Source: a phage
DNA: 64,000 nt
Sequence record: PZ386970.1
Direction: 5' to 3' (one strand)
Part shown: piece after piece, positions 33,028-62,591 of the stretch
Layout of the letters: every line of letters starts with the position of its first letter
Position numbering within the stretch: the first letter of the stretch is position 1
Made by a program: the position numbers and the translations under genes
The notes under the pieces: generated by a model
What the model was told of the DNA's origin: nothing
What the model saw: only the letters and a program-made list of their open reading frames with translations
The model's database searches: none

Positions 33028-33083
33028 TTTTTTGCATCTCGCGTTAATTGATGCGATGGTTTTTGCAGGTCTTACTTAAATTA

Positions 33084-33452: not shown

Positions 33453-33469
33453 GTTTTCTACACGGTGCA

Positions 33470-35155: not shown

Positions 35156-35183
35156 GTTGTGGTCCTCATTGGTAAGTAGGTGT

Positions 35184-35208
35184 ATTGTACACTATTCTAG
35201 TTAAAGCA
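35184..35208 (-). promoter_or_regulatory. MotA-type middle promoter (TGCTTTA, 12 nt, TACAAT) upstream of the nucleotidyltransferase-kinase gene
   Basis: exact MotA box core with canonical spacing to a TAnnnT -10. Confidence 0.45.
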
Positions 35209-35340
35209 TTCATACTTTGCCTGTAGACCAATCATAATCCATCCAATTACAAGTGTTGGAATCATTACTGGAGCCGTTAAGCTCCAGTAGATAGTCATGA
35301 CAAGCATCAATAGTAAAAGTCCTATTGTTATTGCTTTCAT
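35197..35340 (-). CDS. small membrane protein (47 aa)
   Basis: manual translation MKAITIGLLLLMLVMTIYWSL...; TAATG-coupled to SIS gene stop. Confidence 0.3.
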   Translation of the reverse strand: MKAITIGLLLLMLVMTIYWSLTAPVMIPTLVIGWIMIGLQAKYECFN

Positions 35341-35972
35341 TATTCGCCTCGTAACATGGCACCTAGTGCACCGCCAGGGTGGAACTTAAGGAAGTCATTA
35401 GAGGTAAATCCACGTTCAGAAGAAAGGTTGATAGCAAACGTATCGATAAGCGCTAACAACAATGTAGTGGACATTGTCGGAGCTAAAGAGTTCTCATCGA
35501 CCTCTACCGCGATGCCTGTACAGAAAGAGTAATCAAAAAGGGCTTCATTTTCTTGCGGAATGTCAGGGTTACAATGTAACAGAATCTGTTTAACCTGAGG
35601 ACGAATCATACGAAGATGTTTAGCAACACCTATCATTTCTTCGGTCTTACCAGAACGACTAATATGAATCAACACATCATTAGGCGCAATGAATCCTGCA
35701 TCACCGTGAGAATAATGCCCGGTGTTCAAGTACATACTAGGAATACCTAGTGAAGCAAATGTCTCAGAAGCTTTAGTTGCAATATTAGCATTCTTACCAA
35801 CACCTGTAATAATTACTCGGCTTTCATAATTACTAAGTCCTGGGCGTCGAAGAGTTTCTAGAATAGCATTATAACGAGCAGGGTTTTGACTAATTACTTT
35901 GGCCATAGTAGCCAAAGAAGAAGCTTGTTTTATGATTGCGTCAATAGCGATAGTGATTGGTGTAGTTTTCAT
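35340..35972 (-). CDS. SIS-domain sugar-phosphate isomerase, KdsD/GutQ-like (arabinose-5-phosphate isomerase-like), no CBS domains
   Basis: VIITGVGKNANIATKASETFASLGIPS...HISRSGKTEE and FLKFHPGGALG match the KdsD SIS domain; 210 aa. Confidence 0.7.
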   Translation of the reverse strand: MKTTPITIAIDAIIKQASSLATMAKVISQNPARYNAILETLRRPGLSNYESRVIITGVGKNANIATKASETFASLGIPSMYLNTGHYSHGDAGFIAPNDVLIHISRSGKTEEMIGVAKHLRMIRPQVKQILLHCNPDIPQENEALFDYSFCTGIAVEVDENSLAPTMSTTLLLALIDTFAINLSSERGFTSNDFLKFHPGGALGAMLRGE

Positions 35973-36012
35973 ATTTCTCTCATTTAATTAGTTTACCGTC
36001 CATGGTATTATA

Positions 36013-38724
36013 TCAAAAATCGAACATATCGAACAGAGATGCTTTCTTCTCGTAATCGAGTTTCGCTGCTGATGTGAATCCTTCAAGTGGTTTAATAAAT
36101 GTCTTCTCAAGGAGAACAGTGTAGTCCATCCAATGAAGTACGTCGTCTTTAATTAAATCTGTGATTTCAGTACCAGAAGGCCATGCGATACATTTATCAC
36201 CGAATGGGTTTCCATCACGTAAAGGCAGAACGTATACCTTTTCGCCTTCTACAACTTGTGGAGCATCAATATTACCTTTGATAGCCCGGTTATATGTCAG
36301 AATTCCACGAATATGGAACGGGCATTTAGGACCAGGGAATCCACCAACGTCATATTTAGCAATGTTATTCGCAGAAGATACCGACGCGATGCTAATATAA
36401 TTCAATTGACGGAATTCTTTTTCAAACTCTTTAAAATATTCTTGTAATGATTCTTCACCTTCTTGAAGCATACGACGAATACATTCTTTAAGAGCTTTCT
36501 GTACTGCTTTAGGGGTCGAAGATTTCTGAGTCTCTAGACCCATGATTTTGAGTTTAGGCTCAGCGTAACGAGTACCTTCCATATCCCACACGTTTAATGC
36601 ATAACGTTTCTTACCAGTCCAGAATCCACCAATACCTTTAGAACCAAGCGGAGGCCCAGCGATAGCTTCTCGGTCCATGAACATCAAATGTTGCTTATTA
36701 TTCATGTATTCGCACATTTCACGGAAACCTCTATCAATAGCAGGTTCCATACGTTCACGAGCGAACTTATCTAAGAAGTCTACCCAATGGTTGGTATCAC
36801 GGAATTTAGATTCACCAACCTTATCGATAATTTTATCAGCAGATACGTAAATAGAGTCTGTATCACCATAAAGAACGAAAGCTTCGCCTTCTGTACCACA
36901 AACTTCATTCAGATATTCATTAACTTTACGTTCAATCCACTGTAAAGCCATTTGCCCGAATGTTGTGATTGCAGTAGCATTACGCAAATCATAATAACGG
37001 AACCAAACGTTACCAAGTGCACCATAAAGTGAGTTGATAAGCAATTTACGGTTAATTTGTGCAGTCATACCTGCAACTTCAGTACGTTGAGCTCTAAACA
37101 GCATTTCATTAAGAGATTTAGCAGACAACTTTTTAATCTTTTCTTTAATCTCATCACTGAAGTCGAAACGATAATCAACATCTAATGGTTCGTCAACAGA
37201 AAGATTAGGATTATGCAATGCCTCTTTAATTATTTCACCATTACGTTGAGCTGCAAGCATGTAACCTTTATGTTCTTTACGTTGATTAAAGACCTTAGTG
37301 ATTTCAGTTGGAACTACACCATCACGGTCTTTATAATACATCATGCCGTTAGGAGAGCAACTGTACACATCTGAAGGACGTTCAGCAACAGCGTTAATAT
37401 AATCATGCAATGGAGCTACTTTAAACGTTCCTGCTATTGTTTCTGGGCTAATATTCACTTGGCGAATAATACTTGGATACAGAGATGTAAGGTCGAAACT
37501 CATTACATATTTGTATCGATTTGGAATAGGTTCCTTAACAAAAGCGCCTGGGTAAGGTTGAACTGGATGCGAACGACCTTGTGGAATCACCTTGTTCTGC
37601 TCTTTAAGGCTATTAAAAATAATAGCATCCCATGTTTTAATTGGGCTAAACACAGATTGAATCTGTATCTTAGCATAATAACCCATGTCCAAGCTCAAGT
37701 TAATGAACTGGCGTTTAGCATCAATTTGCAATACACGATACACGTCGATAATGTTATAAGAAATATATCGTTGGTGATTGCTTTCACGAAGCTTAGAAAT
37801 AGGGCCGTCGTATTTCAGTTTACCAACGTTCAATTCAAATTCTGAAATGTAATCCAGAGAATATGACGGTTGATTGGTAAAAGAGAATTTTTTGTAAAGG
37901 TCAATGTAATCAAGAACAGAGATACCGAACAATGTAATGATTTCACGAGAACCATACATGTTTTCGATAACTTTAACACGAGTTTTACGATGTGGCGATA
38001 AACGTTTCGCAGTAGATTCGCCAAAAATATTCTTGATTCGGTTATACACATATGGAATATCAAATGACTCAACGTTCCATCCAGTCAAAATGACAGGAGT
38101 TTTCTGTTGCCAGAAGTTGAGATATTCCATCAACAATTCTTTTTCGTTATCGAACGGCATATAAATGATTTTATCGATAATTTCAGATGGAACTTCATCA
38201 CCGCCTTGTTCTTGAAGCTTAGCCGCAATTTCGATAGACCATTCTTCTACATTACCATATGGAGAATTCAATAGATCAAATACGTAGAACCTGTCGTCAA
38301 TTGAGTCATAATGGGTGATAGCATCAATCGGATGTTTTGCTTGTGACGGCTCAGGGAACCCATCCGGAGATGTTACTTCGATGTCGAAGTTAGCCACACG
38401 AATTTTTGTATGGTCGTATTTGATTTCATAGTTATAAGTGTCAGACAAATACGCCAATTTGAAATCGTCCATGCCAAGTGCTTCAAGTCCGATATCTTCC
38501 ATGCGTTTAATCCATTGGGAGGCATCACGCATATTAGCGAACAACTTACGAGTACACGGCTTACCGTAGATATCGAAATATTTCGTAGCCTGACTTTCTG
38601 GACAATGAGCAAACAGTGATGGTTTATATTCTACTTCGCGAGTACGTTCACGGCCATTAGAATCGATGTAACGTTCAAAAATTGAATCACCAATCTGTTC
38701 AACCGTTAAGTAAAATTCTTTCAT
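36013..38724 (-). CDS. 43: DNA polymerase gp43 (family B)
   Basis: 903 aa; exo motifs FDIE and YNIIDV, pol motifs DLTSLYPS, KILINSLYG, YGDTDS. Confidence 0.95.
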   Translation of the reverse strand: MKEFYLTVEQIGDSIFERYIDSNGRERTREVEYKPSLFAHCPESQATKYFDIYGKPCTRKLFANMRDASQWIKRMEDIGLEALGMDDFKLAYLSDTYNYEIKYDHTKIRVANFDIEVTSPDGFPEPSQAKHPIDAITHYDSIDDRFYVFDLLNSPYGNVEEWSIEIAAKLQEQGGDEVPSEIIDKIIYMPFDNEKELLMEYLNFWQQKTPVILTGWNVESFDIPYVYNRIKNIFGESTAKRLSPHRKTRVKVIENMYGSREIITLFGISVLDYIDLYKKFSFTNQPSYSLDYISEFELNVGKLKYDGPISKLRESNHQRYISYNIIDVYRVLQIDAKRQFINLSLDMGYYAKIQIQSVFSPIKTWDAIIFNSLKEQNKVIPQGRSHPVQPYPGAFVKEPIPNRYKYVMSFDLTSLYPSIIRQVNISPETIAGTFKVAPLHDYINAVAERPSDVYSCSPNGMMYYKDRDGVVPTEITKVFNQRKEHKGYMLAAQRNGEIIKEALHNPNLSVDEPLDVDYRFDFSDEIKEKIKKLSAKSLNEMLFRAQRTEVAGMTAQINRKLLINSLYGALGNVWFRYYDLRNATAITTFGQMALQWIERKVNEYLNEVCGTEGEAFVLYGDTDSIYVSADKIIDKVGESKFRDTNHWVDFLDKFARERMEPAIDRGFREMCEYMNNKQHLMFMDREAIAGPPLGSKGIGGFWTGKKRYALNVWDMEGTRYAEPKLKIMGLETQKSSTPKAVQKALKECIRRMLQEGEESLQEYFKEFEKEFRQLNYISIASVSSANNIAKYDVGGFPGPKCPFHIRGILTYNRAIKGNIDAPQVVEGEKVYVLPLRDGNPFGDKCIAWPSGTEITDLIKDDVLHWMDYTVLLEKTFIKPLEGFTSAAKLDYEKKASLFDMFDF

Positions 38725-38730
38725 TTAATT

Positions 38731-38751
38731 TCCTTTAGACGAGTTATTGTC
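38731..38751 (-). promoter_or_regulatory. gene 43 translational operator-like element: short hairpin with loop AAUAACUC next to the SD
   Basis: minus strand GACAAUAACUCGUC then AAGGAAAUUAA-AUG; loop resembles remembered T4 gene 43 operator loop. Confidence 0.4.
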
Positions 38752-38771
38752 TTTTGTTTGTTGATGAACTT

Positions 38772-38800
38772 ATTATACTCCAAATGGGACCGAAGTCCCA
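38772..38800 (-). promoter_or_regulatory. promoter for gene 43 (TATAAT -10 of the family B repeat; -35 overlaps terminator hairpin)
   Basis: TATACTCCAA motif shared with family B promoters. Confidence 0.4.
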
Positions 38801-38805
38801 TTGCT
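38785..38805 (-). terminator. UUCG-tetraloop hairpin (UGGGAC-UUCG-GUCCCA) 3' of regA
   Basis: stem-loop followed by UUUGG. Confidence 0.45.
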
Positions 38806-39174
38806 TTAATTACCAATTGTATATTTTGCTTTCAAAGTCCAGTCGTCTTTCTGTTTAAAAGAGATAACACGGAAGTTATTAGTCAGGCTAAATAGATCTT
38901 CACGAGCAGAGTCTTCAATAACAATCAATCCCCAGTCTTCAAGCAACTGAGCAATCGAATCACGTCGCTGATAGTCTTCACCGTCAATATCAACCTGGCG
39001 TCCATCCATACGCAGCATTTCTTTAAAGTGGACAATATAGTACTTACCTTGCTTTTGGAGGATATGACAAGACTGGTAAAGGACTTTATCTTTGTTATTA
39101 GCGATGCCCATACGGGTCAAAGTCTCTTTGACTTTCAGAAAATCTTCAGGGTTCTTCAATTTAATTTCAATCAT
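38806..39174 (-). CDS. regA: translational repressor RegA
   Basis: MIEIKLKNPEDFLKVKETLTRMGIANNKDKVLYQSCHILQK near-identical to T4 RegA; 122 aa. Confidence 0.85.
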   Translation of the reverse strand: MIEIKLKNPEDFLKVKETLTRMGIANNKDKVLYQSCHILQKQGKYYIVHFKEMLRMDGRQVDIDGEDYQRRDSIAQLLEDWGLIVIEDSAREDLFSLTNNFRVISFKQKDDWTLKAKYTIGN

Positions 39175-39176
39175 TT

Positions 39177-39740
39177 TTACCATTCCAATGCTAATTTTTT
39201 AAATTGTTTTTGTTCTTTCACGTTTTTGGTAACTTCTTTAAGAAATTCATCAGTGACCATGGCCTTCAGTTCTTTAAGGACTATTGGCAACTTGTTATTT
39301 TTTTCAAGGAGCCGCTTATACTCGGTAGCATCATTCATGTTGATTGTGTAATGTTTCATCAACAGTTTGATAACTAGTAACTCTGAAGTGTCTTCAACTA
39401 GTTTAGCCCATTTAGAGAATCGACGACCACGCGGAATTGCCGCCATCATATAGTTGAAGTGCGCTTCATCACTTAATTCAGAACCGACTAAGTTCATCAT
39501 GTAAACGGCTGGCATACATTCTGGGAACTGTGATAATGAGTTCTCAACCATAAATTTTGAGTAGTCGACCTGAGCAATTGACATAGATTTCTTTTCATTA
39601 ATAGCATTAATGATTTTAAAGAATTCATTCTCAGGTTTTTCTTTAAACATATCAGCACATTTTTGAATCGCATCAGCGTCATTAGACTTCCATGCAATTT
39701 GGTGCTCGTTAAGCTGGACGTCATCATCGAATAAGTTCAT
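39177..39740 (-). CDS. 62: clamp loader small subunit gp62
   Basis: 187 aa; matches T4 gp62 throughout. Confidence 0.85.
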
Positions 39741-39741
39741 A

Positions 39742-40704
39742 TTATTTCCAAGTCAGTTCACAGGTCAGTTGAAGAAGCATATACATAACATGTAATTCAA
39801 TATTACTTGCTAGTCCATGAAACTTATTATTTTCGCCTGCAATTTCGTAAAGCGAAATAATACTTTTACCAGGTGCAACTTGGTCATAACATTCTGAAAC
39901 TAATTTATCGATGAACCATGAATAATCTGCAGCATATTTTGGAGCTAATGCACGAAGTTGTTTGATATCTTTGTTCTTCATTGCTTCGATAACATCAGAG
40001 ACTGTGCCACGGTCATTAGTTACGATAGACAGAATACCTGCATCAAGAACACCTTTAGACGAGTACTGGTCTAATTGGCCAATTGTACGACGAAAGTCTG
40101 GGAAGTTCTTTTTAACCAGAGCTGCAACAACTTTCATATCAGCGATTTCGATATTTTCGTTCTTACAGATTTCAACCATACGATGAATCATTTTCTTCAT
40201 CATCGAGATTTTATCTTCTTCAGTCGGACGACCGAATTCGATAACTCGACAACGGCTACGTAATGGTTCAATAATTCCGTCAATGTTGTTAGCAGTGATA
40301 ATAATAGAGCAGTTACTAGAGAATTCTTCCATAAACGTACGAAGGTGACGTTGTGATTCGGCGAGGCCACTACGGTCAAATTCATCAATAACAATAACTT
40401 TAGGCTTGCCTTCCATTGAGACTGAACGAGCGAATGCAGTTAACGGACCACGCACAAAATCAATCTTACAATCAGAACCGTTGACGAACATCATTTCGGC
40501 ATTGATATCATTACATAATGCTTTTGCTACGGTTGTTTTACCTGTACCAGGAGAAGGAGAGTGCAAAATAATATGAGGAAGTTTTCCTTTAGATACTAAA
40601 GACTTGAATGTTTCGTGGTCATACGCAGGCAGAATACATTCGTCAATGGAAGAAGGACGATATTTCTGTTCTAGAATGTGTTCTTTGGAATTGATAGTAA
40701 TCAT
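39742..40704 (-). CDS. 44: clamp loader ATPase gp44 (AAA+)
   Basis: 320 aa; Walker [15 protein letters not shown] Walker B, SRC motif. Confidence 0.9.
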
Positions 40705-40779
40705 GTAATTTTCCTCATTATCATTAAACTGGAGGATTTCTCCTCCATAATCGTACTACATTAAACGTAAAGCTTTGAC

Positions 40780-41466
40780 TTAGAAGTCGTGAGTAGAATC
40801 AGCTTCCATTGCAATAACATAACTTACTTGAGAGCTTTCAAACTTAGCTGCAACTTTATCACCAGCTCCCCACAACATTACTTTATAGTTACCTGGCTGG
40901 ATTTTCATATTAGCCATATTGATTACGAAGTTAAAGTTGTTAGAACCATCATAATCGGTAAGAGTCAAAGAATACTTAGGACGAGTCAAGCCAGAATCTT
41001 CAACTTTATTGTAACCGTTGATAACAATTTTACCATCTTTATTTGTAATAGCAATTGTATCAATCTGCAGTCCACGTGAAACTCGGAGCAATTGTTGGAG
41101 GTCTTCAGCTTTAATTTCAGTAATAACGGAAGCTACTGGGAACTGAATTGGCTTATTCGGGAACACGATAGTGCTCTTGTCAGCGGCAGGCCAATAAACT
41201 GTGGAACGTGTATCTGCAATTTTAATATTACCGTCAGTGTGCATTGAAATTTCAGCATCATCAGACACTAGACTCAAAATGCTTAAGAAGCTATTCAAAT
41301 CATAAAGTGCTACGTCAAAATCAATTTCATCAGAGATATTTGCTTCTGCATAAGTGGTGCCATTAACTGCACGAGTCATAATAAATTTACCTTGACTCAG
41401 AAGAATACCGGAGTTAATAGAGGCAAAGTTTTTCAGAATAGCGATAGTATCTTTAGACAGTTTCAT
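40780..41466 (-). CDS. 45: sliding clamp gp45
   Basis: MKLSKDTIAILKNF... matches T4 gp45; track start over-extended by 5 codons. Confidence 0.9.
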   Translation of the reverse strand: MKLSKDTIAILKNFASINSGILLSQGKFIMTRAVNGTTYAEANISDEIDFDVALYDLNSFLSILSLVSDDAEISMHTDGNIKIADTRSTVYWPAADKSTIVFPNKPIQFPVASVITEIKAEDLQQLLRVSRGLQIDTIAITNKDGKIVINGYNKVEDSGLTRPKYSLTLTDYDGSNNFNFVINMANMKIQPGNYKVMLWGAGDKVAAKFESSQVSYVIAMEADSTHDF

Positions 41467-41506
41467 TTTATTTCCTTTCAAGACAATTCAAAGTTTAACA
41501 AATTTA

Positions 41507-41923
41507 TTATGCAGCAACCATCTGCTTTTTAATAGCTTCAGGCAGTGATTCAATATATTCTGGAATTTTAGAAGCAACAATTTCGCCAGCTGCAATTAGT
41601 TGTTCGTCGGCATCAACACAGTAAAAATCTTCAAGGCGTTCAGAACCGTCTTTATCAAGAACGATTTTAGCACCTGCTTCGATAGAATCTTTATAGTGCT
41701 TACGCATCAGATGAATCCACATATCAGATACATCATTATCAATAAAACCATAAATCATAAAACGAGTTTCTTGTGGCAAAGATTGAAGCTTTTTAGCACT
41801 TGCGTCATCACAATGCAGGACCCATGCTTTACGAACACGATTATGGTTATGCGGGTTAGCGTCAGTACGGATAGAAGTAACTTTCAGATCAGCAGCGGTA
41901 AAACCTTTAGCAGTAGTAAACAT
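41507..41923 (-). CDS. rpbA: hypothetical protein at the rpbA position (138 aa)
   Basis: synteny between 45 and 46 only. Confidence 0.4.
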   Translation of the reverse strand: MFTTAKGFTAADLKVTSIRTDANPHNHNRVRKAWVLHCDDASAKKLQSLPQETRFMIYGFIDNDVSDMWIHLMRKHYKDSIEAGAKIVLDKDGSERLEDFYCVDADEQLIAAGEIVASKIPEYIESLPEAIKKQMVAA

Positions 41924-41935
41924 ATTATTTCTCTC

Positions 41936-42136
41936 TTATTCGTAGAAGTCGGTAACTGTCCATGCGGAATTGCGATTAGACATTATTTTATTATACTCAT
42001 CTTTAAAAGCAGATTTGAGCATTTGTTCAGTAACAATATGTTCTTCACCTGAAAAAGTATTGGTCAAAACATATTTTTTAATTTCAGGGACAACGAGAAG
42101 ATGTTGTCCGGTTGAATACTCCATGTTGTTCTCCAT
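41936..42136 (-). CDS. hypothetical protein (66 aa)
   Basis: ORF; 45.2 position. Confidence 0.4.
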   Translation of the reverse strand: MENNMEYSTGQHLLVVPEIKKYVLTNTFSGEEHIVTEQMLKSAFKDEYNKIMSNRNSAWTVTDFYE

Positions 42137-42178
42137 TTAATTTGATGTGGTCATTATAACCACATCGTGTTAAAGCGT

Positions 42179-43867
42179 TTATGAAACAGTCATCACAGTA
42201 AATCGTCCAACTTTGCTCATTTGAAGATGTTGTCCATAAGCTTGTGGGTCATGGTCTCTGTGACTAATTATAAACACGTTTGCATCGGTTAGAGAGTTAA
42301 GAATTGTTGAAATAGCTTTAATACCTTCAGAATCAGTCGCTGAATCCATGACTTCGTCCATAATTAATGTATTGATTCTAACACCAGAGACCTTTTCAGC
42401 AATATCTCGCCATGTAAACAACAATGCGATATCGATACGTGCCTTTTCACCTTGACTAAATGAAGCATAACTAAAATCTTCACGGCCACGTGATTTTATA
42501 GATTCATTGAATTCTTCGTCAATAGAAAACACGTAATCAGCTTCCATGATTTTAAGATAATGGTTAATCTGCTTGTTGAACAGAGGCACATATTTTTTAA
42601 TGATAGCACCTTTAATACCAGAATCTTTTAACATATCTGTGATAATACCACGATGGTATTTTTCAAGAACGATATCTGATTTTGTTTTAATGATTTTATC
42701 AAGTTCTTTTTGAAGCAAAGCTATCTCATCGGCATGGTCGATAAATTCTGCTGAGGCTTGTTCTATTGCAGCTTTAACTTTCTTAGCTTTATCAATAGTG
42801 GCAATCATTGCTTGTTTCTTGGTACGAATATCAGATGCAAGGTCCTGTTTAGTCTTAACATTAGCTCTATATTCGTCCACTAGGACACTCAGATTATCTC
42901 TGTGACAGGTAAGTTGCTCGAATGAGTGATTACATTCATGAAGCTTATCGGTAATCTTAGAGACAATAGGATCACCCTGGTGCAACTGTGATGCGCAAGT
43001 AGGACATGTACCGCCATCATGATACATCTTAATAACTTTGTTATATGAGTCAATTTTAGATTTAATCAAGAATGCTTCTTGTCCTATCTTGTTGAATGCC
43101 TCAGTAGGATCTTCATCAAGAACGATATTAAGTAGTCGCTCATTAGCTTCTTCGATTTCTGCTTTTAATGAACGAGCTTCTTTGGCTAGGTCGTCATACA
43201 TATTCTGTAGACGCGCTACATTATCACCAGATAATTTCTTTTGACGTTCGATATTATCGTTATAAATCTTAATTTGTTGGATAATACCATCTTTCTTGGC
43301 ATCAAGAACTTGTCCCTGGGAATTAAGTTCTCGAACTTGAGACTTATTGATTTTATCCATTTCAGCGAGTGTGCCAACTTCTAAAAGGTCTTCGACAAGT
43401 TTTCTACGAGCAGGGGTGCTAAGAGCCATGAAAGGGGTATACCCTGCCGTCCCAAGCACAACGATTTGTTTAAAAGACGCGTATGACATTCCGATGCTAC
43501 GTTCAAATTCTTCTTGGAAGTCACGACTGCTGGCAGATTCATCGAGACGAACACCGTCAACGGAGATTTCGAAAATATTGGGCTTTTGGCCGCGTTTAAT
43601 GAAGTATTTTTTATCATCGAATTCCATCCAAAGCTCAACTAAGAGCTCTTTCTTGTTCGTGCTATTAATGATTTGTCCTTTCTTAACATCACGAAATGGT
43701 TTACCGAAAAGTCCGAAAGTAATGGCTTCTAACATCGTAGATTTACCACCGCCGTTTTTACCGGTGATTAATGTCTTTTGGACTTTATCTAATTGGATAT
43801 CAATAGGATTCCCACCTACCGACATGATGTTTTGATAACGAACACGATTTAATTTAAATGATTTCAT
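42179..43867 (-). CDS. 46: recombination nuclease subunit gp46 (SbcC/Rad50-like ATPase)
   Basis: 562 aa; Walker A GKNGGGKST, coiled-coil middle, CPTC zinc hook-like, C-terminal DE Walker B. Confidence 0.9.
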   Translation of the reverse strand: MKSFKLNRVRYQNIMSVGGNPIDIQLDKVQKTLITGKNGGGKSTMLEAITFGLFGKPFRDVKKGQIINSTNKKELLVELWMEFDDKKYFIKRGQKPNIFEISVDGVRLDESASSRDFQEEFERSIGMSYASFKQIVVLGTAGYTPFMALSTPARRKLVEDLLEVGTLAEMDKINKSQVRELNSQGQVLDAKKDGIIQQIKIYNDNIERQKKLSGDNVARLQNMYDDLAKEARSLKAEIEEANERLLNIVLDEDPTEAFNKIGQEAFLIKSKIDSYNKVIKMYHDGGTCPTCASQLHQGDPIVSKITDKLHECNHSFEQLTCHRDNLSVLVDEYRANVKTKQDLASDIRTKKQAMIATIDKAKKVKAAIEQASAEFIDHADEIALLQKELDKIIKTKSDIVLEKYHRGIITDMLKDSGIKGAIIKKYVPLFNKQINHYLKIMEADYVFSIDEEFNESIKSRGREDFSYASFSQGEKARIDIALLFTWRDIAEKVSGVRINTLIMDEVMDSATDSEGIKAISTILNSLTDANVFIISHRDHDPQAYGQHLQMSKVGRFTVMTVS

Positions 43868-44112
43868 ATGTATTCTCTTCGAATGAAGTCCTCTACATAT
43901 TTTAACATGTCATCCCTATCAGCAAAATATTCATCTAGTTCTGCATACATAACAACACCTGGTGCGTACTCACAGGTAACATACATTGTTCCAAAGAAAC
44001 GAGGAGTTGATTCCTCGTAATTCTCAGTCCATTCTACGATACCAAAATAACCGTCGCCAATACTAAATTCATGGCGCTGGTATTCATTAGTCTTCGTAGT
44101 CATTATAAGCAT
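43864..44112 (-). CDS. hypothetical protein (82 aa)
   Basis: ORF; 46.1 position. Confidence 0.4.
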   Translation of the reverse strand: MLIMTTKTNEYQRHEFSIGDGYFGIVEWTENYEESTPRFFGTMYVTCEYAPGVVMYAELDEYFADRDDMLKYVEDFIRREYI

Positions 44113-44347
44113 CCTCGATGCAGGCTTCAGCCATTTTCAGAAGAGAACCAGGAGTATCACCGTCCATTACATTGAAACTGAATTCCACAGCCCAGTCTGT
44201 ACAGACACGAACTGCTTTAACTTCACCGTCTTCAACTCGTAATGGTTCAATCCAGTATTTCACTGTGTTCTCGAATCCATCATCATCTTTAACGTCTATT
44301 TCAACTTCAAGCCCGAGCCCAGCATTGTTAAATTCATCTAAAGTCAT
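44087..44347 (-). CDS. hypothetical acidic protein (86 aa)
   Basis: ORF; 46.2 position. Confidence 0.4.
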   Translation of the reverse strand: MTLDEFNNAGLGLEVEIDVKDDDGFENTVKYWIEPLRVEDGEVKAVRVCTDWAVEFSFNVMDGDTPGSLLKMAEACIEDAYNDYED

Positions 44348-45363
44348 TGTGTTGCCTCAATATAAAGTTCGTTGGAATATTTGACCAGCGCTTCTCTGTC
44401 TTCGTCTGAGATATCTGGAATCGCATCAATATATTCTTTAATGATATCTTGAAGTGATTTAATCTCGATTTCCTGGTCGTCATCGGATTCAACACTGTTA
44501 TCAACTTTAGAAACCATACGAAGAGAGTGAACTACTTTTTCAAGTTCAGATTCAAACTTAGTCAATTCTGAATCAATTTCTGATACTATAACACGTACGG
44601 CTAGATTAGTATAATCAGAATAATTGATTTTGCCTTTAAACGGATAAGTGATTCGTCGATGCCATGTTGTTTCATTAGGAATAAATTCCATACGTTCAAC
44701 ATCAGTGTCAAATACCCAGAATCCGCGCGGGTCATTCTCATCGCCTGCAGTAAGGGTCCATGGTGTCCCAATATATTTGACGTTAGCAGCTTCAGAGATT
44801 GTGTGGAAGTGGCCAGACCAGACTTGTTTATAGGTCTTTAAGAAATCAGGTTCAAGCCCATGAGACTTCATTCCTTTATAGAAATAAAAGCCATTCAGTT
44901 CCCAGTGTCCAACACAATACGCAGCAGAAGAAGTCTTGATGTGCTCTAAGATTTCACCTGTATTTTCTTCACACATCCATGGAATTAAATCAATCAGACA
45001 CCCATCGAAATCAACAGTCGTAGGTTTATCATAAATAACAACATTTTTACGATGAGACAAAAGCTCTTGGGTTGTATTAGGGTATAAAGTTGTCTTATAA
45101 AAAAGGTCGTGGTTACCCAAAATAGTGTGAACGGTTATTCCAGCGTTTTCAGCCATATCAAATAATTCACGAGTAAACTCCATACAACGTTGTGTTGTGT
45201 GAGCTCGTACATCAAATACGTCCCCGTACTGTATCCATGTTGTTATTCCATTTTTAACAGAATAATCCACCATTTGTTTGAATCCGTGTCGTTGGATGTT
45301 TTGAATCCAAACATCATCCTTTTTTACACCTAAGTGCAAATCGCCCACGTTAAGAATTTTCAT
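44344..45363 (-). CDS. 47: recombination nuclease subunit gp47 (SbcD/Mre11-like phosphoesterase)
   Basis: MKILNVGDLHLG, GNHD, GHxH phosphoesterase motifs; start trimmed to MKILNVG. Confidence 0.9.
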   Translation of the reverse strand: MKILNVGDLHLGVKKDDVWIQNIQRHGFKQMVDYSVKNGITTWIQYGDVFDVRAHTTQRCMEFTRELFDMAENAGITVHTILGNHDLFYKTTLYPNTTQELLSHRKNVVIYDKPTTVDFDGCLIDLIPWMCEENTGEILEHIKTSSAAYCVGHWELNGFYFYKGMKSHGLEPDFLKTYKQVWSGHFHTISEAANVKYIGTPWTLTAGDENDPRGFWVFDTDVERMEFIPNETTWHRRITYPFKGKINYSDYTNLAVRVIVSEIDSELTKFESELEKVVHSLRMVSKVDNSVESDDDQEIEIKSLQDIIKEYIDAIPDISDEDREALVKYSNELYIEATQ

Positions 45364-46177
45364 ATTGCACCTTAAATTTACCATAAATTATACTGTGATA
45401 ACTTAAATCAGGAAAACCTTCTGCGACGGCTAAAGGTCTAAACTTCTTAGGACTTATTCTACCACATTTTACCCAAAGAGTATATAGTGCTTCATAATAT
45501 TCAAATAATGGTCCTTTACGAGCTTCAGAAACAGTTTTACGCACTTTGTCCTTTATTGACGGGTCTAAATTTCTAAGGGTTTCACTAATTTTGTTTCGAT
45601 GGGTTTCATTAATAAGATTTCCTTTAACCCAGCCTTCAGGTTCAGTCCCTGGGACAAACATTTTCTTTTCTTTGCCATTATTATACCATTTGCGACCTTT
45701 ATTGTGACTAGAGGCTTTATATTCAGGAGAACGACCTTTTACATTACCTTCTGGTATATAAGGTAGAAAACTTTGTTCTAACGTTTCAGGGTTGTATGAG
45801 TGTATATGGCCTTTACCATTATGTGAGCCGTACAATGGGTGCTCTTCTTTTGGAAGTGATAATCCGAAAAATCCTTTAGGAGCAGCAATTGCTTTATTCA
45901 TATACATCGGGTTATTGGCAGCATCCACCTTTAGTTGGAGTAAACGTTCAGCTTTTGTCGCTTCTTCTCTTGTGGCGTGTTCACTTACAATACATGAATC
46001 AAAAAGATGTGGATTCATTTTTAGTTCAGAATTGTAAATTTCCTTATACGCTTTTGATAAAACCGTTCCGTGATATCCAGCTTTATGTTTTGCAATATTT
46101 GTGGAACCTATATAAAACGGTGGAAGTTTGTCACCATCATAAATCGTAAAATATACTATGTACATGTTATTCTCCAT
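45350..46177 (-). CDS. GIY-YIG homing endonuclease (Seg-like) with NUMOD-type repeats
   Basis: MYIVYFTIYDGDKLPPFYIGST GIY-YIG-like core; repeated basic GKxHxxYN / KGRKWYNNG motifs; occupies the T4 alpha-gt slot next to 47. Confidence 0.6.
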   Translation of the reverse strand: MENNMYIVYFTIYDGDKLPPFYIGSTNIAKHKAGYHGTVLSKAYKEIYNSELKMNPHLFDSCIVSEHATREEATKAERLLQLKVDAANNPMYMNKAIAAPKGFFGLSLPKEEHPLYGSHNGKGHIHSYNPETLEQSFLPYIPEGNVKGRSPEYKASSHNKGRKWYNNGKEKKMFVPGTEPEGWVKGNLINETHRNKISETLRNLDPSIKDKVRKTVSEARKGPLFEYYEALYTLWVKCGRISPKKFRPLAVAEGFPDLSYHSIIYGKFKVQYENS

Positions 46178-46185
46178 TTTGTATA

Positions 46186-46220
46186 GAAATTACTATATCA
46201 TAGTTTATACTGTTTGTAAA
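46186..46220 (-). promoter_or_regulatory. early-type promoter (GTTTACA, 18 nt, TATAGT)
   Basis: drives the GIY-YIG gene. Confidence 0.5.
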
Positions 46221-46227
46221 CCCTAGA

Positions 46228-46254
46228 AACGAGAAAAGGAACTCCGAAGAGTTC
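46228..46254 (-). terminator. UUCG-tetraloop terminator (GGAACUC-UUCG-GAGUUCC plus U-rich tail)
   Basis: 7-bp stem followed by UUUUCUCGUUU. Confidence 0.55.
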
Positions 46255-46973: not shown

Positions 46974-47189
46974 TTATCTCATTAAATTAAAATAAAAACG
47001 TCCGTCCTCTTCAATACAGAACTCGTACTCAACTGGAGTCCCATTTATCGAAAATGACACGTCATGTGGGTTCAAAGGGTCGATGTCAAAATTAATTTTA
47101 AATTCTCTACCCAACAGTTTTACCAAATAAGGGATTGCTTCGTCAAAAGGTTCTTCTAAGTAGTTAGAGATGTCAATTGTTATCCTCAT
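46974..47189 (-). CDS. hypothetical protein (71 aa from MRITIDIS)
   Basis: track start overlaps gene 55 by 95 nt; trimmed. Confidence 0.35.
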
Positions 47190-47730
47190 ATAAAAAATCC
47201 AAACTAGGCGAATCGCTAACAACTTCCTTCTTTTCAGCCCCAGGAGCTTTATAAGCTGATTCTTCATAATGCGTCATTTTATCGTAGATGTCTTGAATAA
47301 ACGTTTCATCTACCAACGCTACCATATCATCGTCATGACTGTCGTAGACATTATGAACGAAGTAACTATATTTCTTTGCAACTTCCTTACGTTCTTTTTT
47401 GATACGTTGGACAAAAGCATTAAAACAAGCTCGAGTTATGTATGCATGTGGGTTATTGTACTTAGTTTCGTCGAAATTATGAAGTCCCTTAATAGAGGCT
47501 TCAATCCCATCTGCAATCATCTCCTGCTTCCAAGACTGGGTATATCCTGAAAAGTTGAAACGTTTGGACAGGCCTTCGGCGATAAGCATAATTGCTAAAC
47601 CGATGGTATCATTCTGACGAATAATTTTGTTTGGGTCTTTATTATTTAAGAGCTCCTTTTTCCACTCGATTATAGCGGCGAGAAGCTCTTTATTATTCAC
47701 ATAGTTATTTTTAGGTTTTTGTTCAGTCAT
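47173..47730 (-). CDS. 55: late sigma factor gp55
   Basis: 185 aa; [24 protein letters not shown]...; matches T4 gp55. Confidence 0.85.
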
Positions 47731-50983: not shown

Positions 50984-51454
50984 TTAATCATGTTTCCACA
51001 CCCCATCGGTATTTGACCAAAGTCGCTGATTATCTGATCCTCGCCACAGCTTTTTGGTCGGAAGATTTTTCTCATACTTCCCATCAATAATAACATCAAC
51101 ATATTTAAGCATTTCTAGCTGTTTAATATCTTCAAACTTATATCCTGTCCACAACCAAATGCTTTTATTAGGATAAAGATTTTTTACTGTTTGAACAATG
51201 CAATGAATAACATCTCGGTTATCAGGATAGAGAGGGTCACCTCCGGTTATAGTCAATCCTTCTATATAATCATTATTCAAACATTCAATTAATTGTTCTA
51301 GTGTTTCACCAGTGAATGGAATACCATTTCTAGCATTCCATGTTGATTTATTATAACACCCTTCGCATTTATGCAAACACCCTGTAACGAAAAGAACGAC
51401 CCTACAACCAGGGCCATTCACAAAATCGCAAGGATAAAACCTATCATAATTCAT
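50984..51454 (-). CDS. nrdG: anaerobic ribonucleotide reductase activating protein NrdG (radical SAM)
   Basis: 156 aa; CLHKCEGC (CxxxCxxC) radical-SAM motif, GGDP. Confidence 0.85.
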   Translation of the reverse strand: MNYDRFYPCDFVNGPGCRVVLFVTGCLHKCEGCYNKSTWNARNGIPFTGETLEQLIECLNNDYIEGLTITGGDPLYPDNRDVIHCIVQTVKNLYPNKSIWLWTGYKFEDIKQLEMLKYVDVIIDGKYEKNLPTKKLWRGSDNQRLWSNTDGVWKHD

Positions 51455-52751
51455 TGGTGTTTAACCCTATGCATGATTTCTTTATTTTTACCGAGATTAA
51501 ATCCGCGTTCGTTCGGATTTCCCAAATAGCCGCATGTTCTTCTTATGGTGTTCATCTTTTTAGGATCAGTTTCTCCACAAACTGAACAAACAAATCCGTT
51601 TTCAGTAGGAGTCATTTCATGAGTACTTCCGCATGTAAAACATTTATCCACTGGCATATTAACACCAAAATAATCTAAATGTTGTGCAGCATAATCCCAG
51701 ACAGCCTCAAGACCCTTTAAATTGTTTTTCATATCTGGAAGTTCAACATAAGAAATGTGACCACCTGTCGCAATGAAATGATATGGCGCTTCACGAGAAA
51801 TCTTTTCAAATGGAGTAATATTTTCTTCTACTGAAACATGGAAACTGTTAGTGTACCAGCCTTTATCGGTAACATCTTTTACACTTCCATATTTTTCTGT
51901 GTCTAGTTTACAGAAACGATAACAAAGGTTTTCAGCAGGAGTAGAATACAAACTAAAAGCAAATCCAGTTCTTTCAGTCCACTGTTTAAGATGAGCATTC
52001 ATTTTAGTTAAAATTTCTTGCCCAATATCACGACCAACAAGAATATTCAATTCATGAATACCAATGTATCCTAAAGACACTGAACTTCTACCATTTTTAA
52101 ATAACTCAATTATGTCATCATCAGGTTTAAGACGAACCCCGAATGCACCTTCTTGGTAAAGAATAGGAGCAACAGTCGCTTTAACTCCTTTTAAGGAACT
52201 AATTCTACACATCAAAGCTTCAAAACATAAATCCATTCGTTCATTGAATAATTCAACAAATTTCTGTTCATTGAACTGTGTTCCAATATAAGAATCTAAT
52301 GCGATACGAGGAAGATTCAGTGTTACAACACCGAGATTATTACGTCCATCAAGAATTTCATTACCAGTCGAATCTTTCCATACACTCAAGAAACTACGGC
52401 AGCCCATTGGAGAAACAGGAACAGATGAACCGGTAATAGCTTTATTATTCTTAACAGAAATAATGTCAGGATACATTCTTTTGCTTGCACATTCTAACGC
52501 AAGTTGTTTAATATCATAGTTCGGATCATCTTTATAAAGATTAACACCCTCTTCAACAAACATAACAAGTTTAGGAAAAATAGGAGTTATCCCATCACGA
52601 CCAAGACCTTTAATACGATTTTTCAGAATTGCTTTCTGAATCATTCGTTCAGTCCAGTCAGTTCCCGTACCAAATGTAATTGTTACAAAAGGCGTTTGTC
52701 CATTAGAGCTGAAAAGTGTATTTACTTCATCATTATATTCAGCATGAGTCG
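51451..52751 (-). CDS. nrdD: anaerobic ribonucleoside-triphosphate reductase NrdD, exon 2
   Basis: C-terminal CxxC...C and glycyl-radical region (RTCGYLG); 5' boundary predicted from intron terminal G and reading-frame continuity. Confidence 0.75.
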
Positions 52752-52756
52752 CAAAT

Positions 52757-53527
52757 TCATGCCCGTTTATATGAAACAACAAAATTTGGATAGTCCATAG
52801 ATATGCAACGTTCTTTTATAGTGCTAGGATGAAAATTTAGCGCTTTAGCTGCTTCTATATAAGACGTATACTTAATACCGTCAACAACCACATATTCAGG
52901 AACTTTATGAATAGTAGTCTTAATACTCAAAACAAGAGGATGAGTTTCGACTTCACTTTCAGTGCAATTTAAATATTCCGCTGCTTTTTTAAAACTTCTA
53001 AAAGTTTTATTTTTAAGCTTTATCGATACTTGTTTTTTACTTTTTCGACTATTGATATTATTTTGCACATGTTCCTTAGATCTTCCATTTTTAGCATAAT
53101 ATTCAGCTACAGAAGATTTTATATTGTTTTTATGAGATTTGGATAACACTTTACCCTTATGAGCATCTCTTAATTTTTGAATATGTTCTTCAGTATCCGG
53201 ATGTTTATAAAACTTTTTACCGCCTATGGATTTATTTAAACATTTTTTGCTATAAAAATATTTACGTATGACCTCTTCTTCATGTTTTAATGCATCTTTA
53301 TAACTATCAAATGTTTTTAAAATTATCCATTTAGTAGGTGTATCAGTTTTTAAGCGTTCATTTATATACTTAGATGACGTTGTGTAAGTTTTCCAGTTTG
53401 TGGGCTTGTTTTTAATTGTTCTAAATTTTTTATAACCGATATAAATGTCGCCATTAGAAAACTTAACTAAGTATGTAAATGCGTCTTTATCTTTTATTTT
53501 AGTACAACGTCTTTTTATCCATTTCAT
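52757..53527 (-). CDS. intron-encoded GIY-YIG homing endonuclease (I-TevII-like)
   Basis: 256 aa; FTYLVKFSNGDIYIGYKKF GIY-YIG core, NUMOD-like repeats, C-terminal HTH-like IKYTSYIEAAKALNFHPSTI; own RBS GAGGTG. Confidence 0.75.
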   Translation of the reverse strand: MKWIKRRCTKIKDKDAFTYLVKFSNGDIYIGYKKFRTIKNKPTNWKTYTTSSKYINERLKTDTPTKWIILKTFDSYKDALKHEEEVIRKYFYSKKCLNKSIGGKKFYKHPDTEEHIQKLRDAHKGKVLSKSHKNNIKSSVAEYYAKNGRSKEHVQNNINSRKSKKQVSIKLKNKTFRSFKKAAEYLNCTESEVETHPLVLSIKTTIHKVPEYVVVDGIKYTSYIEAAKALNFHPSTIKERCISMDYPNFVVSYKRA

Positions 53528-53556
53528 TGTTTCACCTCGTATTCATAAGATAATCT

Positions 53557-53564
53557 TATTTATA
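53557..53564 (-). promoter_or_regulatory. late promoter TATAAATA inside the intron, upstream of the homing endonuclease ORF
   Basis: exact TATAAATA about 30 nt before the ATG; T4 intron endonucleases are late-expressed. Confidence 0.5.
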
Positions 53565-53776
53565 CAAGATGACTGCTGCATGTCGCCATGCAGATTAGAC
53601 TATATCTTCATCTTTCGATGCCGGCCGTTTCGAATAGCATTAGCTTCTATTCTACACCGTTACATTCATCACGGTTAGTCGTTAGGCATTTAGTTCAAAA
53701 GAACATTTAGCACGGGATTGTCTTACTAGAGAGGTTCCCCGTTTAGACCGGTTTTACATGAGCCTGAATTAAATTA

Positions 53777-54314
53777 ACTCATACGCCTGAAATGCATCGT
53801 ATACATCTTTTTCTGTTTTAGATTGAGCATAATTCAACGCATCAGCGATTTGCCATTTTTCTGCATCCTCAATATGTTTTGCATAGGTGCGTTTAACATA
53901 AGGAGAAAGTACTTTATCTACATTTGCAAAAGTCGTTCCGCCGTATTGATGGGAAGCAACCTGTGCAGTAATTTGTGCCATAATTGCAGTAGCAACGCCA
54001 ATTGATTTAGGAGTTTCAATCTGTGCATTACCTAGCTTAAATCCATTTTCAAGCATTCCTTTTAAATCTACTAAACAGCAATTAGTAAAAGGAAGAGCAG
54101 GGGAATAATCAATATCGTGCACGTGAATAATTCCGCTTTCATGCGCTTTCATAATAAAAGACGGGACCATATTTTTGGCAATGTGTTTAGACACAATACC
54201 AGCCATAAGGTCCCGTTGAGTTGGAAAAACACGAGAATCTTTATTAGCATTCTCGTTCAAAAGATCTTTATTAGTTTTATGAATTAATCCTTCAATTTCT
54301 TTTTCAATTTTCAT
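53777..54314 (-). CDS. nrdD: anaerobic ribonucleoside-triphosphate reductase NrdD, exon 1
   Basis: 181-aa ORF ends in a stop just inside the intron; exon ends at U of GAGU predicted by P1 pairing. Confidence 0.75.
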
Positions 54315-54784
54315 TTTAAACTCTTTCTAAGCTGCTTTTTGAATGAAGCTATTAATTGTGGTTTAGTATCAGATTCATTATATTCAAATCCTCTTTGAAG
54401 CATCTCAGCCATCATTTCCTCTTTACCTAAACGAGAAAATTCCTTTGATTTATCTCCAACAAAATTAGGATGGATATTATTATCAGAATAATCTTGTTTC
54501 AAATAAGCAAGAAGAGCTTCAAGCCATTCTAGGTAGTCGACATCACGGCCTTTAAGACCAGAACGGTTGAACTTATGCTTCATTTGACCTTCTGCTGCGT
54601 TGCACAGATTACAGAGTAATCCACGAACTCTACCGGCTTTTGGCCCGTTTAATTCGTGGTCGTGGTCAAGATGGTTACCTTGAACATCAGGGTCTAATTC
54701 ACGGTGGCAAATAGGACACTTACCGTTCTGTGCATCATAAAATTTTTGTTTTTCTTCTTTATATTTTGCGCCTGATAATAACAT
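54311..54784 (-). CDS. 49: endonuclease VII (Holliday junction resolvase), gp49
   Basis: 157 aa; CPICHRELD...HLDHDHELNGPKAGRVRGLLCNLCN matches T4 endo VII. Confidence 0.9.
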   Translation of the reverse strand: MLLSGAKYKEEKQKFYDAQNGKCPICHRELDPDVQGNHLDHDHELNGPKAGRVRGLLCNLCNAAEGQMKHKFNRSGLKGRDVDYLEWLEALLAYLKQDYSDNNIHPNFVGDKSKEFSRLGKEEMMAEMLQRGFEYNESDTKPQLIASFKKQLRKSLK

Positions 54785-61601: not shown

Positions 61602-62591
61602 TTATTTATAGTAAGAATTATGATTTTCGAGATAGACTTGCTCAAGGAAATCATCCCAGAAACTCATATCTACTTTTTGTTGCATACCGTTCTTAGCGGC
61701 CTGTTCTGATGCTTGTTCTACCTGGTCAACGATATCTTCTAGGAATTCTTGTACAGTTTTAAACGTATGTTTACCAAGCTTAACATCGAGAATAAATGGA
61801 GCATCTTGAAGTGGGTAAACCAGGTCGCCGGTTTTATAAATTTCCAATAGTTGAAGTCCACCACGACATGCATGACTCAATGCTTTCCAGTCAATACCTT
61901 CGTTAGCTTCTGCCTTACGAGCACGTTCACCGTAGTTCTCTTCCAGTTTAACCAGGATGGCATTGAACTCTTTATTGGTTAACGTGTCTTGGAATTTACG
62001 GTCTAACAGACTATAGAACGTTTGCTTACCTGTTTTCTCGTTTTCGGTTTCAACCCATGAAGCAAATTCACCTACAGGCAGAACATTCTTCATATGTGAT
62101 AAACGAATTACTGCACCATTATCAAAGTATTGTCCCCATTCATTAGAACGTTTAAGGGCTTGACGAAGAACAGCCAGTCGAGAACCCTTGACACCGTATT
62201 TAGAAGCTTGCTTACGGACATACCCTAAATAAGATTTCATGTTAGTGGTATAGAAACGAGACCTGTTATCTTGAATATACTTCCATACATCAGGCAAATC
62301 AGATTTAACTACTAGACTTTGTGGAGTGTGAAGCATATCTAATGCGACGGTTTCACCATCCGCAGCTAGTTTAAAGAAATATTTGAGACTATATAACTCA
62401 TGGTCCACGTCGTCTTTTGTGTTCTTAGAAGATGTGTTATTCGTGTTCTTGCTCATATGTTCTTTAACGTTACCGGTCAAGATATCACGAGCATGAGGGA
62501 CATAAATTTCTTTAAAATCGACGTCAGATTCAGGAGTAGACGTTCCATAAAGGTGGCTACCAAAGTAGCCTTTCATAATTGTTTTCATCAT
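61602..62591 (-). CDS. nucleotidyltransferase-fold protein (329 aa)
   Basis: GSHLYGTSTPESDVDF resembles the Pol-beta-type NTase motif (G[SG]...DxD). Confidence 0.45.
   Translation of the reverse strand: MMKTIMKGYFGSHLYGTSTPESDVDFKEIYVPHARDILTGNVKEHMSKNTNNTSSKNTKDDVDHELYSLKYFFKLAADGETVALDMLHTPQSLVVKSDLPDVWKYIQDNRSRFYTTNMKSYLGYVRKQASKYGVKGSRLAVLRQALKRSNEWGQYFDNGAVIRLSHMKNVLPVGEFASWVETENEKTGKQTFYSLLDRKFQDTLTNKEFNAILVKLEENYGERARKAEANEGIDWKALSHACRGGLQLLEIYKTGDLVYPLQDAPFILDVKLGKHTFKTVQEFLEDIVDQVEQASEQAAKNGMQQKVDMSFWDDFLEQVYLENHNSYYK
61603..61610 (-). promoter_or_regulatory. late promoter TATAAATA
   Basis: exact TATAAATA about 33 nt before the ATG at 61570. Confidence 0.5.

Follow-up and report, generated by a model that had tools for sequence, protein, structure and literature searches.

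A probable mobile group I intron in nrdD of a T4-like phage, a diverged sister of the T4 sunY element

Results

The interrupted nrdD gene and its spliced product

The window, i.e., the whole stretch of 64,000 nucleotides of phage DNA that was analysed (sequence record PZ386970.1), derives from a T4-like phage (Tequatrovirus). Its nrdD gene, for the anaerobic ribonucleotide reductase, occupies 54314..51451 on the minus strand, the limits already assigned by an earlier, sequence-only reading, and contains a group I intron, an element well known from this gene in T4-like phages; all features described below lie on this strand. Exon 1 (53777..54314, 538 nt) has the 3' end ...GCG TAT GAG T, the last base being T 53777. 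It matches positions 1-141 of the Pfam NRDD model (E 1.5e-40), shares 96.7% identity with T4 exon 1, and its boundary agrees with the intron-less nrdD of phage RB61. Alignment to T4 and RB61 thereby upholds both the exon length and the 5' splice site that had been proposed. Exon 2 (51451..52730, 1280 nt) starts with AT GAA GTA AAT..., covers NRDD positions 145-562 and Gly_radical, and is 94.5% identical to T4 exon 2. The nrdD stop codon is overlapped by the nrdG start at 51454.

Excision of 53776..52731 leaves an uninterrupted NrdD of 605 aa, and the gene should be annotated as join(54314..53777, 52730..51451). The protein obtained by splicing can be aligned over 605 aa with NrdD of phage RB3 (97% identity) with no gap and agrees with the T4 NrdD sequence from PDB entry 1h78. 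When the spliced junction was used as a 400-nt query, 621 phage records matched over at least 80% of it. The predicted exon ligation junction is ...UAUGAGU followed by AUGAAGUA..., and a cDNA across it should fall 1046 nt short of the DNA, with the reading ...GCGTATGAGT joined to ATGAAGTAAAT.... Public records of this allele annotate two nrdD coding sequences, for which a spliced gene model is given here instead.

Intron limits and the 3' splice site

The intron (52731..53776) is 1046 nt long and runs from UAAUUU... to ...AUAAUG. These limits are based on the intron-less RB61 nrdD, which lacks exactly 53776..52731, missing as a single block. At the 3' splice site (52731..52733), the terminal G 52731 comes directly after the dinucleotide AU, which is the P9.0 partner of J7/9. 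P9.0 consists of A-U and U-A in this allele versus two A-U pairs in T4, which is a compensatory change, and a P10 of 4 bp with exon 2 forms only with the 3' splice site at 52731. The terminal G, P9.0 and P10 required of a group I intron are all found at G 52731, a position that is independently set by the intron-less genes. P9.0 was reportedly treated by Michel et al. in 1990, and a remote 3' splice site by Michel et al. in 1992. The 3'-terminal hairpin GCAUGA / UCAUGC (52742..52762) holds the endonuclease stop codon. Compared with its T4 counterpart, GUAGAG / CUCUAC, all 6 of 6 pairs are kept, 4 of them with both sides changed.

The sequence-only reading had placed the 3' splice site at 52752, in the loop of this hairpin, with an intervening sequence of about 1025 nt, an exon 2 of 1301 nt and a 612-aa product joined as AYE-S-THAEYNDEV. 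Intron-less RB61 and RB3, the sequences of T4 NrdD crystal structures and P9.0/P10 show that site to be 21 bases too early. The intron limits taken from RB61 give 1046 nt and leave 1280 nt for exon 2 (52730..51451), and intron-less nrdD, the PDB sequence and P9.0/P10 agree on a 605-aa product with ...AFQAYE-Y-EVNTLF... at the junction. The proposed check of the junction by alignment to intron-less NrdD (RB61, RB3) and to T4 NrdD itself moves the site 21 nt downstream and shortens the protein by 7 residues. The element does end in G, as had been stated, but both candidate ends are G and the observation does not discriminate between them.

The ribozyme core

The ribozyme core (53576..53776) corresponds to intron positions 1-201 and comprises the 3' strand of P1, the helices P3, P4, P5, P6, P6a, P7, P8 and P9, and the IA-specific P7.1 and P7.2. 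A local scan of 1.3 kb with the Rfam model RF00028 gave a match at 53812..53576 with 72.3 bits (E 4.3e-18, model positions 1-253), the gathering score being 50, and with this covariance check the earlier assignment of a group I intron in nrdD stands. Rfam scans of the whole window, by gathering threshold and by E-value, reported no group I match, which we attribute to the Rfam speed filters and not to absence of the intron. P3, P4, P5, P6, P7, P8 and P9 all pair, with P3 and P7 in pseudoknot order. Every helix pairs here and in the T4 allele alike, and compensatory double changes between the two alleles are found at 13 base pairs.

A P1 helix (53757..53783) can be formed, as had been suggested, by exon UAUGAGU plus intron U1 (53783..53776) and the internal guide GGCUCAUG (53764..53757). 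It places a U.G wobble at the 5' splice site (exon U 53777 with G 53763), and the pairing is as in T4. In a search of the window for a second intron by the P7' motif, the only exact match was the nrdD intron. The window copy carries an extra A in loop L5 (53724/53723) that occurs in no public copy.

The endonuclease gene

The homing endonuclease gene (52757..53527) encodes an I-TevII-like GIY-YIG protein of 256 aa with NUMOD1. This ORF lies between the core end at 53576 and the 3' splice site at 52731, i.e., between P9 and a 3'-terminal domain of roughly 80 nt, and the earlier description of a GIY-YIG homing endonuclease ORF on the 3' side of the core, like that of T4 sunY, proved correct (53527..52757). 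The protein is 56% identical to T4 I-TevII (E 2e-101) and matches PHROG 314 'homing endonuclease' (E 7.5e-29). In addition to NUMOD1, residues 9-106 match Pfam SegE_GIY-YIG with 27.4 bits, the cut-off being 25 bits; distant relatives match the same family in 10 of 10 cases, with up to 60 bits. The columns that are invariant with I-TevII include residues of the FTY, YIG, HEE and LNKS motif regions. An AF2 model of the protein was too weak to assign the fold firmly (pLDDT 61, pTM 0.36), and its top Foldseek match was the I-TevI catalytic domain (1ln0, TM 0.54) at a non-significant E of 0.6. A sequence search of the PDB with the endonuclease gave no match.

Late-promoter box, hairpin and long-range helix

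The internal late promoter that had been noted is represented by a T4 late-promoter box, TATAAATA (53557..53564, read 53564..53557), which precedes the endonuclease ATG by 29 nt and falls within the loop and 5' arm of a hairpin. The position of the box is conserved with T4, the record of phage SA20RB annotates a late promoter at it, and the gene for gp55, the late sigma factor, is found in the same window (47730..47173). The box sequence is not enriched, with 3 occurrences per 64 kb versus 7.9 expected, and it is meaningful only through its context.

The hairpin (53532..53572) hides the endonuclease Shine-Dalgarno sequence, GAGG (53538..53535), in its 3' arm. It has a folding energy of -17.6 kcal/mol (z -5.3; shuffles folding as well, 0 of 200), and the equivalent T4 hairpin one of -15.6 kcal/mol, whereas RNA beginning downstream of the box folds with only -3.7 kcal/mol. 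With the box located within the hairpin, late transcripts would lack the 5' arm that hides the Shine-Dalgarno sequence; an arrangement of a late promoter with a hairpin hiding the ribosome-binding site has been described (PMC2988022).

A long-range helix pairs a 5' strand that covers the endonuclease start codon (53515..53536) with a 3' strand in the last codons of the ORF (52770..52793). Its energy is -20.5 kcal/mol, a value reached by 0 of 500 shuffles; its T4 counterpart has -16.3 kcal/mol (3 of 500). The helix is also present in the fold of a natural 345-nt mini-intron, and the DNA of 52770..52793 is far better conserved between the two alleles than the remaining ORF. This helix loops the ORF out and draws the 3' end close to the core. 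We also considered whether a homing-site-like 'operator' precedes the endonuclease. The best candidate scored 14/20, at the same place in both alleles, and was equaled by 3-6% of shuffles; it is suggestive only and was not retained.

Relation to the T4 nrdD and td introns

The closest relative overall is the T4 nrdD (sunY) intron with I-TevII. The two elements occupy the same host gene and insertion point (...TATGAGT before ATGAAGT), have a common helix set including P7.1 and P7.2, and carry the ORF downstream of P9. They also share the late-promoter box, the Shine-Dalgarno hairpin, the long-range helix, the 3' hairpin and a homologous endonuclease. Nevertheless, identity is about 75% in the core (75% over 244 nt), 67% for the intron as a whole, about 66% for the ORF DNA and the above 56% for the endonuclease protein, and the T4 intron has 1033 nt versus 1046 nt here. 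P8 consists of 4 bp here and 6 bp in T4, P7.2 is longer here, P4-P6 is td-like, unlike that of the T4 nrdD intron, and no mobC adjoins nrdD here, unlike in T4. The T4-type allele is at least 99% identical in the 25 records carrying it, and the window element lies outside that near-identity. Intermediate alleles between the two nrdD intron types were found neither in 50,697 phage records nor in 5.8 billion protein clusters. Judged by these comparisons, the window element is a diverged sister allele and not T4's own.

The core had been called nearly identical to that of the T4 td intron. This holds for two patches, 41 of 42 nt over J3/4-P4-P5-P4'-P6 and 17 of 17 nt over P6'-P7, but not elsewhere, the remaining core being about 66% identical. 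The td intron, with I-TevI, has the same subgroup architecture and a GIY-YIG endonuclease under late-promoter and hairpin control. It differs in its host gene, in having P2 and in the location of the ORF, which lies inside the core in P6a and not downstream of P9, and the I-TevI sequence has no detectable similarity to the endonuclease described here.

Distribution of the allele

This nrdD intron allele is already known from public genomes. It occurs at 99% identity or more in about 45 GenBank phages (JK45, SHSML-52-1, SA20RB, JB75, HY03 and some 40 more), in which the endonuclease is 99.2-99.6% identical and the flanking genes are the same. RB3, suggested as a carrier by a GenBank note, is intron-less and was ruled out. 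No description of the allele was found in the literature searched. Between the window and phage JK45, identity is 99.5% in the intron and 99% in the first 100 nt of exon 2, but only 95.7-96.5% for the whole exons. This pattern is a homing signature, and an intron more conserved than its exons among carriers indicates recent spread. Relative to the public copies, the exons of the window differ by 3-4%. Deleted copies of the allele are found in 215Ecol030PP and BYEP01, and frameshifted copies in F1 and FN. In natural derivatives of 479 and 345 nt from which the endonuclease is deleted, the core and at least the last 82 nt are retained.

Discussion

We interpret the element as a mobile self-splicing group I intron of IA2 type at the T4 nrdD (sunY) position, a diverged sister of the T4 element, and place the probability of this reading at roughly 0.93. 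For splicing, promoter use and cleavage, we infer the behavior of this allele from the T4 paradigm. Early or middle nrdD pre-mRNA would be spliced via guanosine attack after U 53777, with exon ligation after the terminal G 52731, which P9.0, P10 and the 3'-terminal domain would position. In this pre-mRNA the endonuclease would stay untranslated, the local hairpin hiding the Shine-Dalgarno sequence and the long-range helix hiding the AUG. Late in infection, gp55-directed transcription would begin just downstream of TATAAATA, within the hairpin, and the ribosome-binding site would be freed. The I-TevII-like GIY-YIG enzyme would then be produced and, in a co-infection, would cut the other phage's intron-less nrdD close to the site of insertion; repair of the double-strand break would copy the intron, together with neighboring exon sequence, into that gene (homing).

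Among other explanations, the one that survives best, although we consider it improbable, is that the window holds a decaying, non-mobile copy whose ribozyme still splices and whose endonuclease is inactive or unexpressed. Deleted and frameshifted copies of the allele do exist, and the GIY-YIG Pfam score is barely above the cut-off. However, the endonuclease ORF in the window is intact and shares 99.6% identity with the copy that most carriers have, and the columns invariant with active I-TevII include residues from the GIY, YIG, E and N motif regions. No damage is seen in the promoter, the Shine-Dalgarno sequence or the hairpin, and the conservation of the intron above its exons among carriers indicates a recent spread.

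It is considerably harder to maintain that no splicing takes place and that insertion of a homing endonuclease split nrdD into genes for two assembling polypeptides. This is how public records would be read, since most GenBank records annotate two separate nrdD coding sequences and the endonuclease with no join, and a split ribonucleotide reductase gene of such kind has been described (PMC3653736); Aeh1 nrdA, split by mobE, exemplifies the type. Against it stand a group I core that is complete, scores highly and carries compensatory changes, and a site and architecture equal to those of the intron in T4, where the crystallised 605-aa protein is the product of splicing. The ORF for the 'second half' of nrdD begins with TTG inside the endonuclease gene and lacks a ribosome-binding site of its own, and the endonuclease-deleted derivatives retain exactly the ribozyme parts.

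Splicing of the identical intron after G 52752, to yield an intron of 1025 nt and a NrdD of 612 aa in which STHAEYND replaces Y, is the least credible alternative: the base is a G and the reading frame stays open, but the 21 nt occur in no intron-less nrdD, the T4 NrdD crystal sequence (1h78) lacks 7 residues of the 612-aa version, as does a distant NrdD (9d3x), 52752 sits in the loop of a covarying hairpin, and at this site the second P9.0 pair is absent and P10 pairs at 1 of 6 positions.

A mobile intron spliced at G 52731 leaves knowledge of group I introns and homing unchanged. Its value for annotation is direct, as nrdD appears in the carrier genomes inspected as two fragments with a separate 'homing endonuclease'. 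It also gives a classic model ribozyme its second natural allele, with many compensatory changes and natural endonuclease-less mini-introns, through which the sunY structure, P9.0 and the 3'-terminal domain included, can readily be tested by covariation.

Intron domain shuffling was reportedly considered by Bryk and Belfort in 1990. A speculative and, in our estimate, rather unlikely extension of the present reading is that two deeply diverged, non-intergrading nrdD intron lineages share one insertion site in host genes that are otherwise about 95% identical, and that the present lineage was partly built by ribozyme-domain exchange with td, an exchange suggested because its P4-P6 is td-identical; the target or cleavage preference of its endonuclease may have shifted as well. 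If so, mixed infections could see either allele compete with the other or home into it.

Identification of a group I intron in nrdD

The nrdD gene (54314..51451, minus strand) is preceded by the gene for gp49 endonuclease VII (54784..54311, minus strand) and followed by nrdG (51454..50984, minus strand); elsewhere, the window encodes the late sigma factor gp55 (47730..47173). The order gp49-nrdD-nrdG is shared with T4, but in T4 mobC is located between nrdD and nrdG. Here, mobC is absent from this position, and the two genes overlap in ATGA (51451..51454), which holds the stop codon of nrdD and the start codon of nrdG. The region 51451..54314 was matched by 913 phage records, nearly all of them T4-like enterobacterial phages, with top matches approximately 97% identical over the full length.

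The NRDD Pfam domain was found in two pieces, with domain positions 1-141 in an ORF at 54314..53769 and positions 145-562 in an ORF at 52782..51451. In a local Rfam scan spanning 1.3 kb, the group I intron model (RF00028) matched 53812..53576 (minus strand) over its full length (72.3 bits, gathering score 50 bits; E 4.3e-18). Both the split domain and the covariance model match support the earlier proposal, made from the sequence alone, of a group I intron in nrdD. This intron was reported by neither of two scans of the whole 64-kb window against Rfam, with gathering and E-value thresholds, which we read as a filter effect; full-length scans could likewise overlook further structured RNAs. A sub-threshold match to the rhinovirus CRE at 20508..20596 (minus strand; 36 bits, gathering score 45; E 0.0017) is most likely due to chance.

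The exons are 95-97% identical to T4 nrdD, and the first nucleotide of the intervening sequence coincides with that of the T4 nrdD (sunY) intron. The element is a textbook case of the mobile group I intron in nrdD of T-even phages, i.e., of an already known kind. By analogy with T4, we infer that splicing, late-promoter use and cleavage would occur.

A sister allele of the T4 intron

Sequence comparison distinguishes the intron from T4's own allele: the core is approximately 75% identical, the ORF DNA approximately 66% and the endonuclease protein 56%. The window element is a common sister allele of the T4 copy. It is matched at no less than 99% identity by 43 records of the phage collection, and approximately 45 carry its endonuclease at no less than 95%; the T4 allele is carried by 25 records, most of them T4 or close relatives, and no intermediates between the two types were found. 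When the endonuclease was searched against 5.8 billion protein clusters, again only these two types were returned, with more distant GIY-YIG relatives beginning at E 4e-42.

Between the two alleles, 13 predicted base pairs in P3, P4, P6a, P7.1 and P7.2 are changed on both sides and still paired, and complementarity is kept in both for every helix, P8 and the P7 pseudoknot strand among them. These observations provide strong comparative support for a functional IA-type ribozyme with P7.1 and P7.2.

Loop L5 contains an extra A (53723..53724), reading UAGUAAGA here versus UAGUAGA in the td intron and in approximately 45 public copies of the allele, none of which has the additional nucleotide; nearly all public copies are 1024 nt long versus the 1025-nt query. 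Either this copy has acquired a private mutation or the extra A is a sequencing error.

The core had been described as nearly identical to that of the T4 td intron (L001). This holds for two patches, J3/4-P4-P5-P4'-P6 (53705..53747; 41/42 nt) and P6'-P7 (53676..53692; 17/17 nt), but elsewhere identity is approximately 66%. In P7.2 and P8, the td intron is closer to the T4 nrdD allele than to the window allele. The similarity between the td and nrdD cores is therefore a mosaic, which hints at occasional exchange of ribozyme domains between introns of one phage. Bryk and Belfort are said to have demonstrated domain shuffling between T4 introns by experiment in 1990.

Splice sites and the NrdD product

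The sequence-only reading placed the 5' splice site correctly, with exon 1 ending at T 53777. The exon-end UAUGAGU and the first intron U pair with GGCUCAUG (53764..53757), and the pair at the splice site is a U.G wobble. Its 3' splice site (52752), in contrast, was misplaced by 21 nt; intron-less genes, NrdD structures and P9.0/P10 pairing all point to 52731. Exactly 53776..52731 is missing from the intron-less nrdD of phage RB61, and a 400-nt query carrying the 52731 junction was matched by 621 phage records at a coverage of at least 80%, with the intron-less ones among the matches listed aligning in a single piece. The spliced 605-aa protein aligns with the uninterrupted 605-aa NrdD of phage RB3 with zero gaps, whereas the 612-aa version proposed earlier shows a 7-residue gap (AYE-----Y--EVNTLF) against both the 605-aa T4 NrdD (1h78) and a distant NrdD of 734 aa (9d3x).

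At 52731, the two nucleotides preceding the terminal G pair with J7/9 to form P9.0, one pair of which shows a compensatory change (U-A here, A-U in T4), and the guide region pairs with four exon-2 nucleotides to form P10. Splicing at 52752 would break one P9.0 pair and leave P10 with one pair. Moreover, 52752 lies in the loop of a hairpin (GCAUGA/UCAUGC, 52762..52742) whose T4 counterpart (GUAGAG/CUCUAC) keeps all six pairs via four double changes. The site at 52752 was rejected on these grounds. Because the 3' site is 52731, the intron is 1046 nt long rather than 1025 nt, exon 2 measures 1280 nt, and the protein reads across the junction as ...AFQAYE-Y-EVNTLF....

The endonuclease gene and its control

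The intron encodes a 256-aa homing endonuclease (53527..52757, minus strand) that matches the Pfam domains SegE_GIY-YIG (27.4 bits, cut-off 25) and NUMOD1, as well as PHROG 314 'homing endonuclease'. All ten remote relatives scanned were GIY-YIG proteins. With a weak AF2 model (pLDDT 61), the top fold match was the catalytic domain of I-TevI, the T4 td intron endonuclease, and the I-TevI DNA-binding domain ranked fourth, neither being significant.

A late-promoter box, TATAAATA, is located at 53564..53557 (minus strand). Since the motif occurs three times in 64 kb (21246..21253, 53557..53564 and 61603..61610, all on the minus strand) versus 7.9 expected, it proves nothing alone; it is the context of this copy that carries weight. 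A hairpin at 53572..53532 (-17.6 kcal/mol, z -5.3) has the box in its 5' arm and loop and the Shine-Dalgarno sequence GAGG in its 3' arm, whereas RNA starting just 3' of the box folds with only -3.7 kcal/mol. An equivalent Shine-Dalgarno hairpin is present in T4.

In addition, a long-range helix (-20.5 kcal/mol, 0/500 shuffles as good) forms between the region of the endonuclease AUG (53536..53515) and the last ORF codons (52793..52770); it is also found in T4 (-16.3 kcal/mol, 3/500). By looping out the ORF, this helix brings the remote 3' splice site nearer to the core.

Mobility and decay

Relative to JK45 (L006), the closest genome, identity is 99.5% for the intron and 99% for the first 100 nt of exon 2, versus 95.7% for exon 1 and 96.5% for exon 2 overall. 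This pattern is that expected from recent homing with co-conversion. Natural endonuclease-deleted introns of 479 nt (phage 215Ecol030PP, L003 501..979) and 345 nt (phage BYEP01, L004 601..945) both keep the core, the promoter/hairpin and at least the last 82 nt, i.e., the 3'-terminal domain. In phages F1 and FN, the intron ORF is broken by frameshift.

Just upstream of gp47, a 275-aa ORF (45350..46177, minus strand) matched PHROG 10820 'HNH endonuclease' (E 6e-75) and no Pfam family; 45037..46234 has no counterpart in JK45, and the ORF region is probably a free-standing homing endonuclease insertion. The C-terminal ~25 residues of RB3 NrdD (L009 540..620) differ sharply from their window and T4 counterparts, and this end adjoins a segD-like endonuclease gene in place of mobC. 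Finally, window positions ~30800..45000 correspond to JK45 28636..42863 (97% identity). The displayed part of the JK45 annotation for this stretch lacks an alpha-glucosyltransferase; it lists arabinose-5-phosphate isomerase, a GlmU-like protein and a U32 peptidase beside DNA polymerase, which may point to a non-glucose hydroxymethylcytosine modification.
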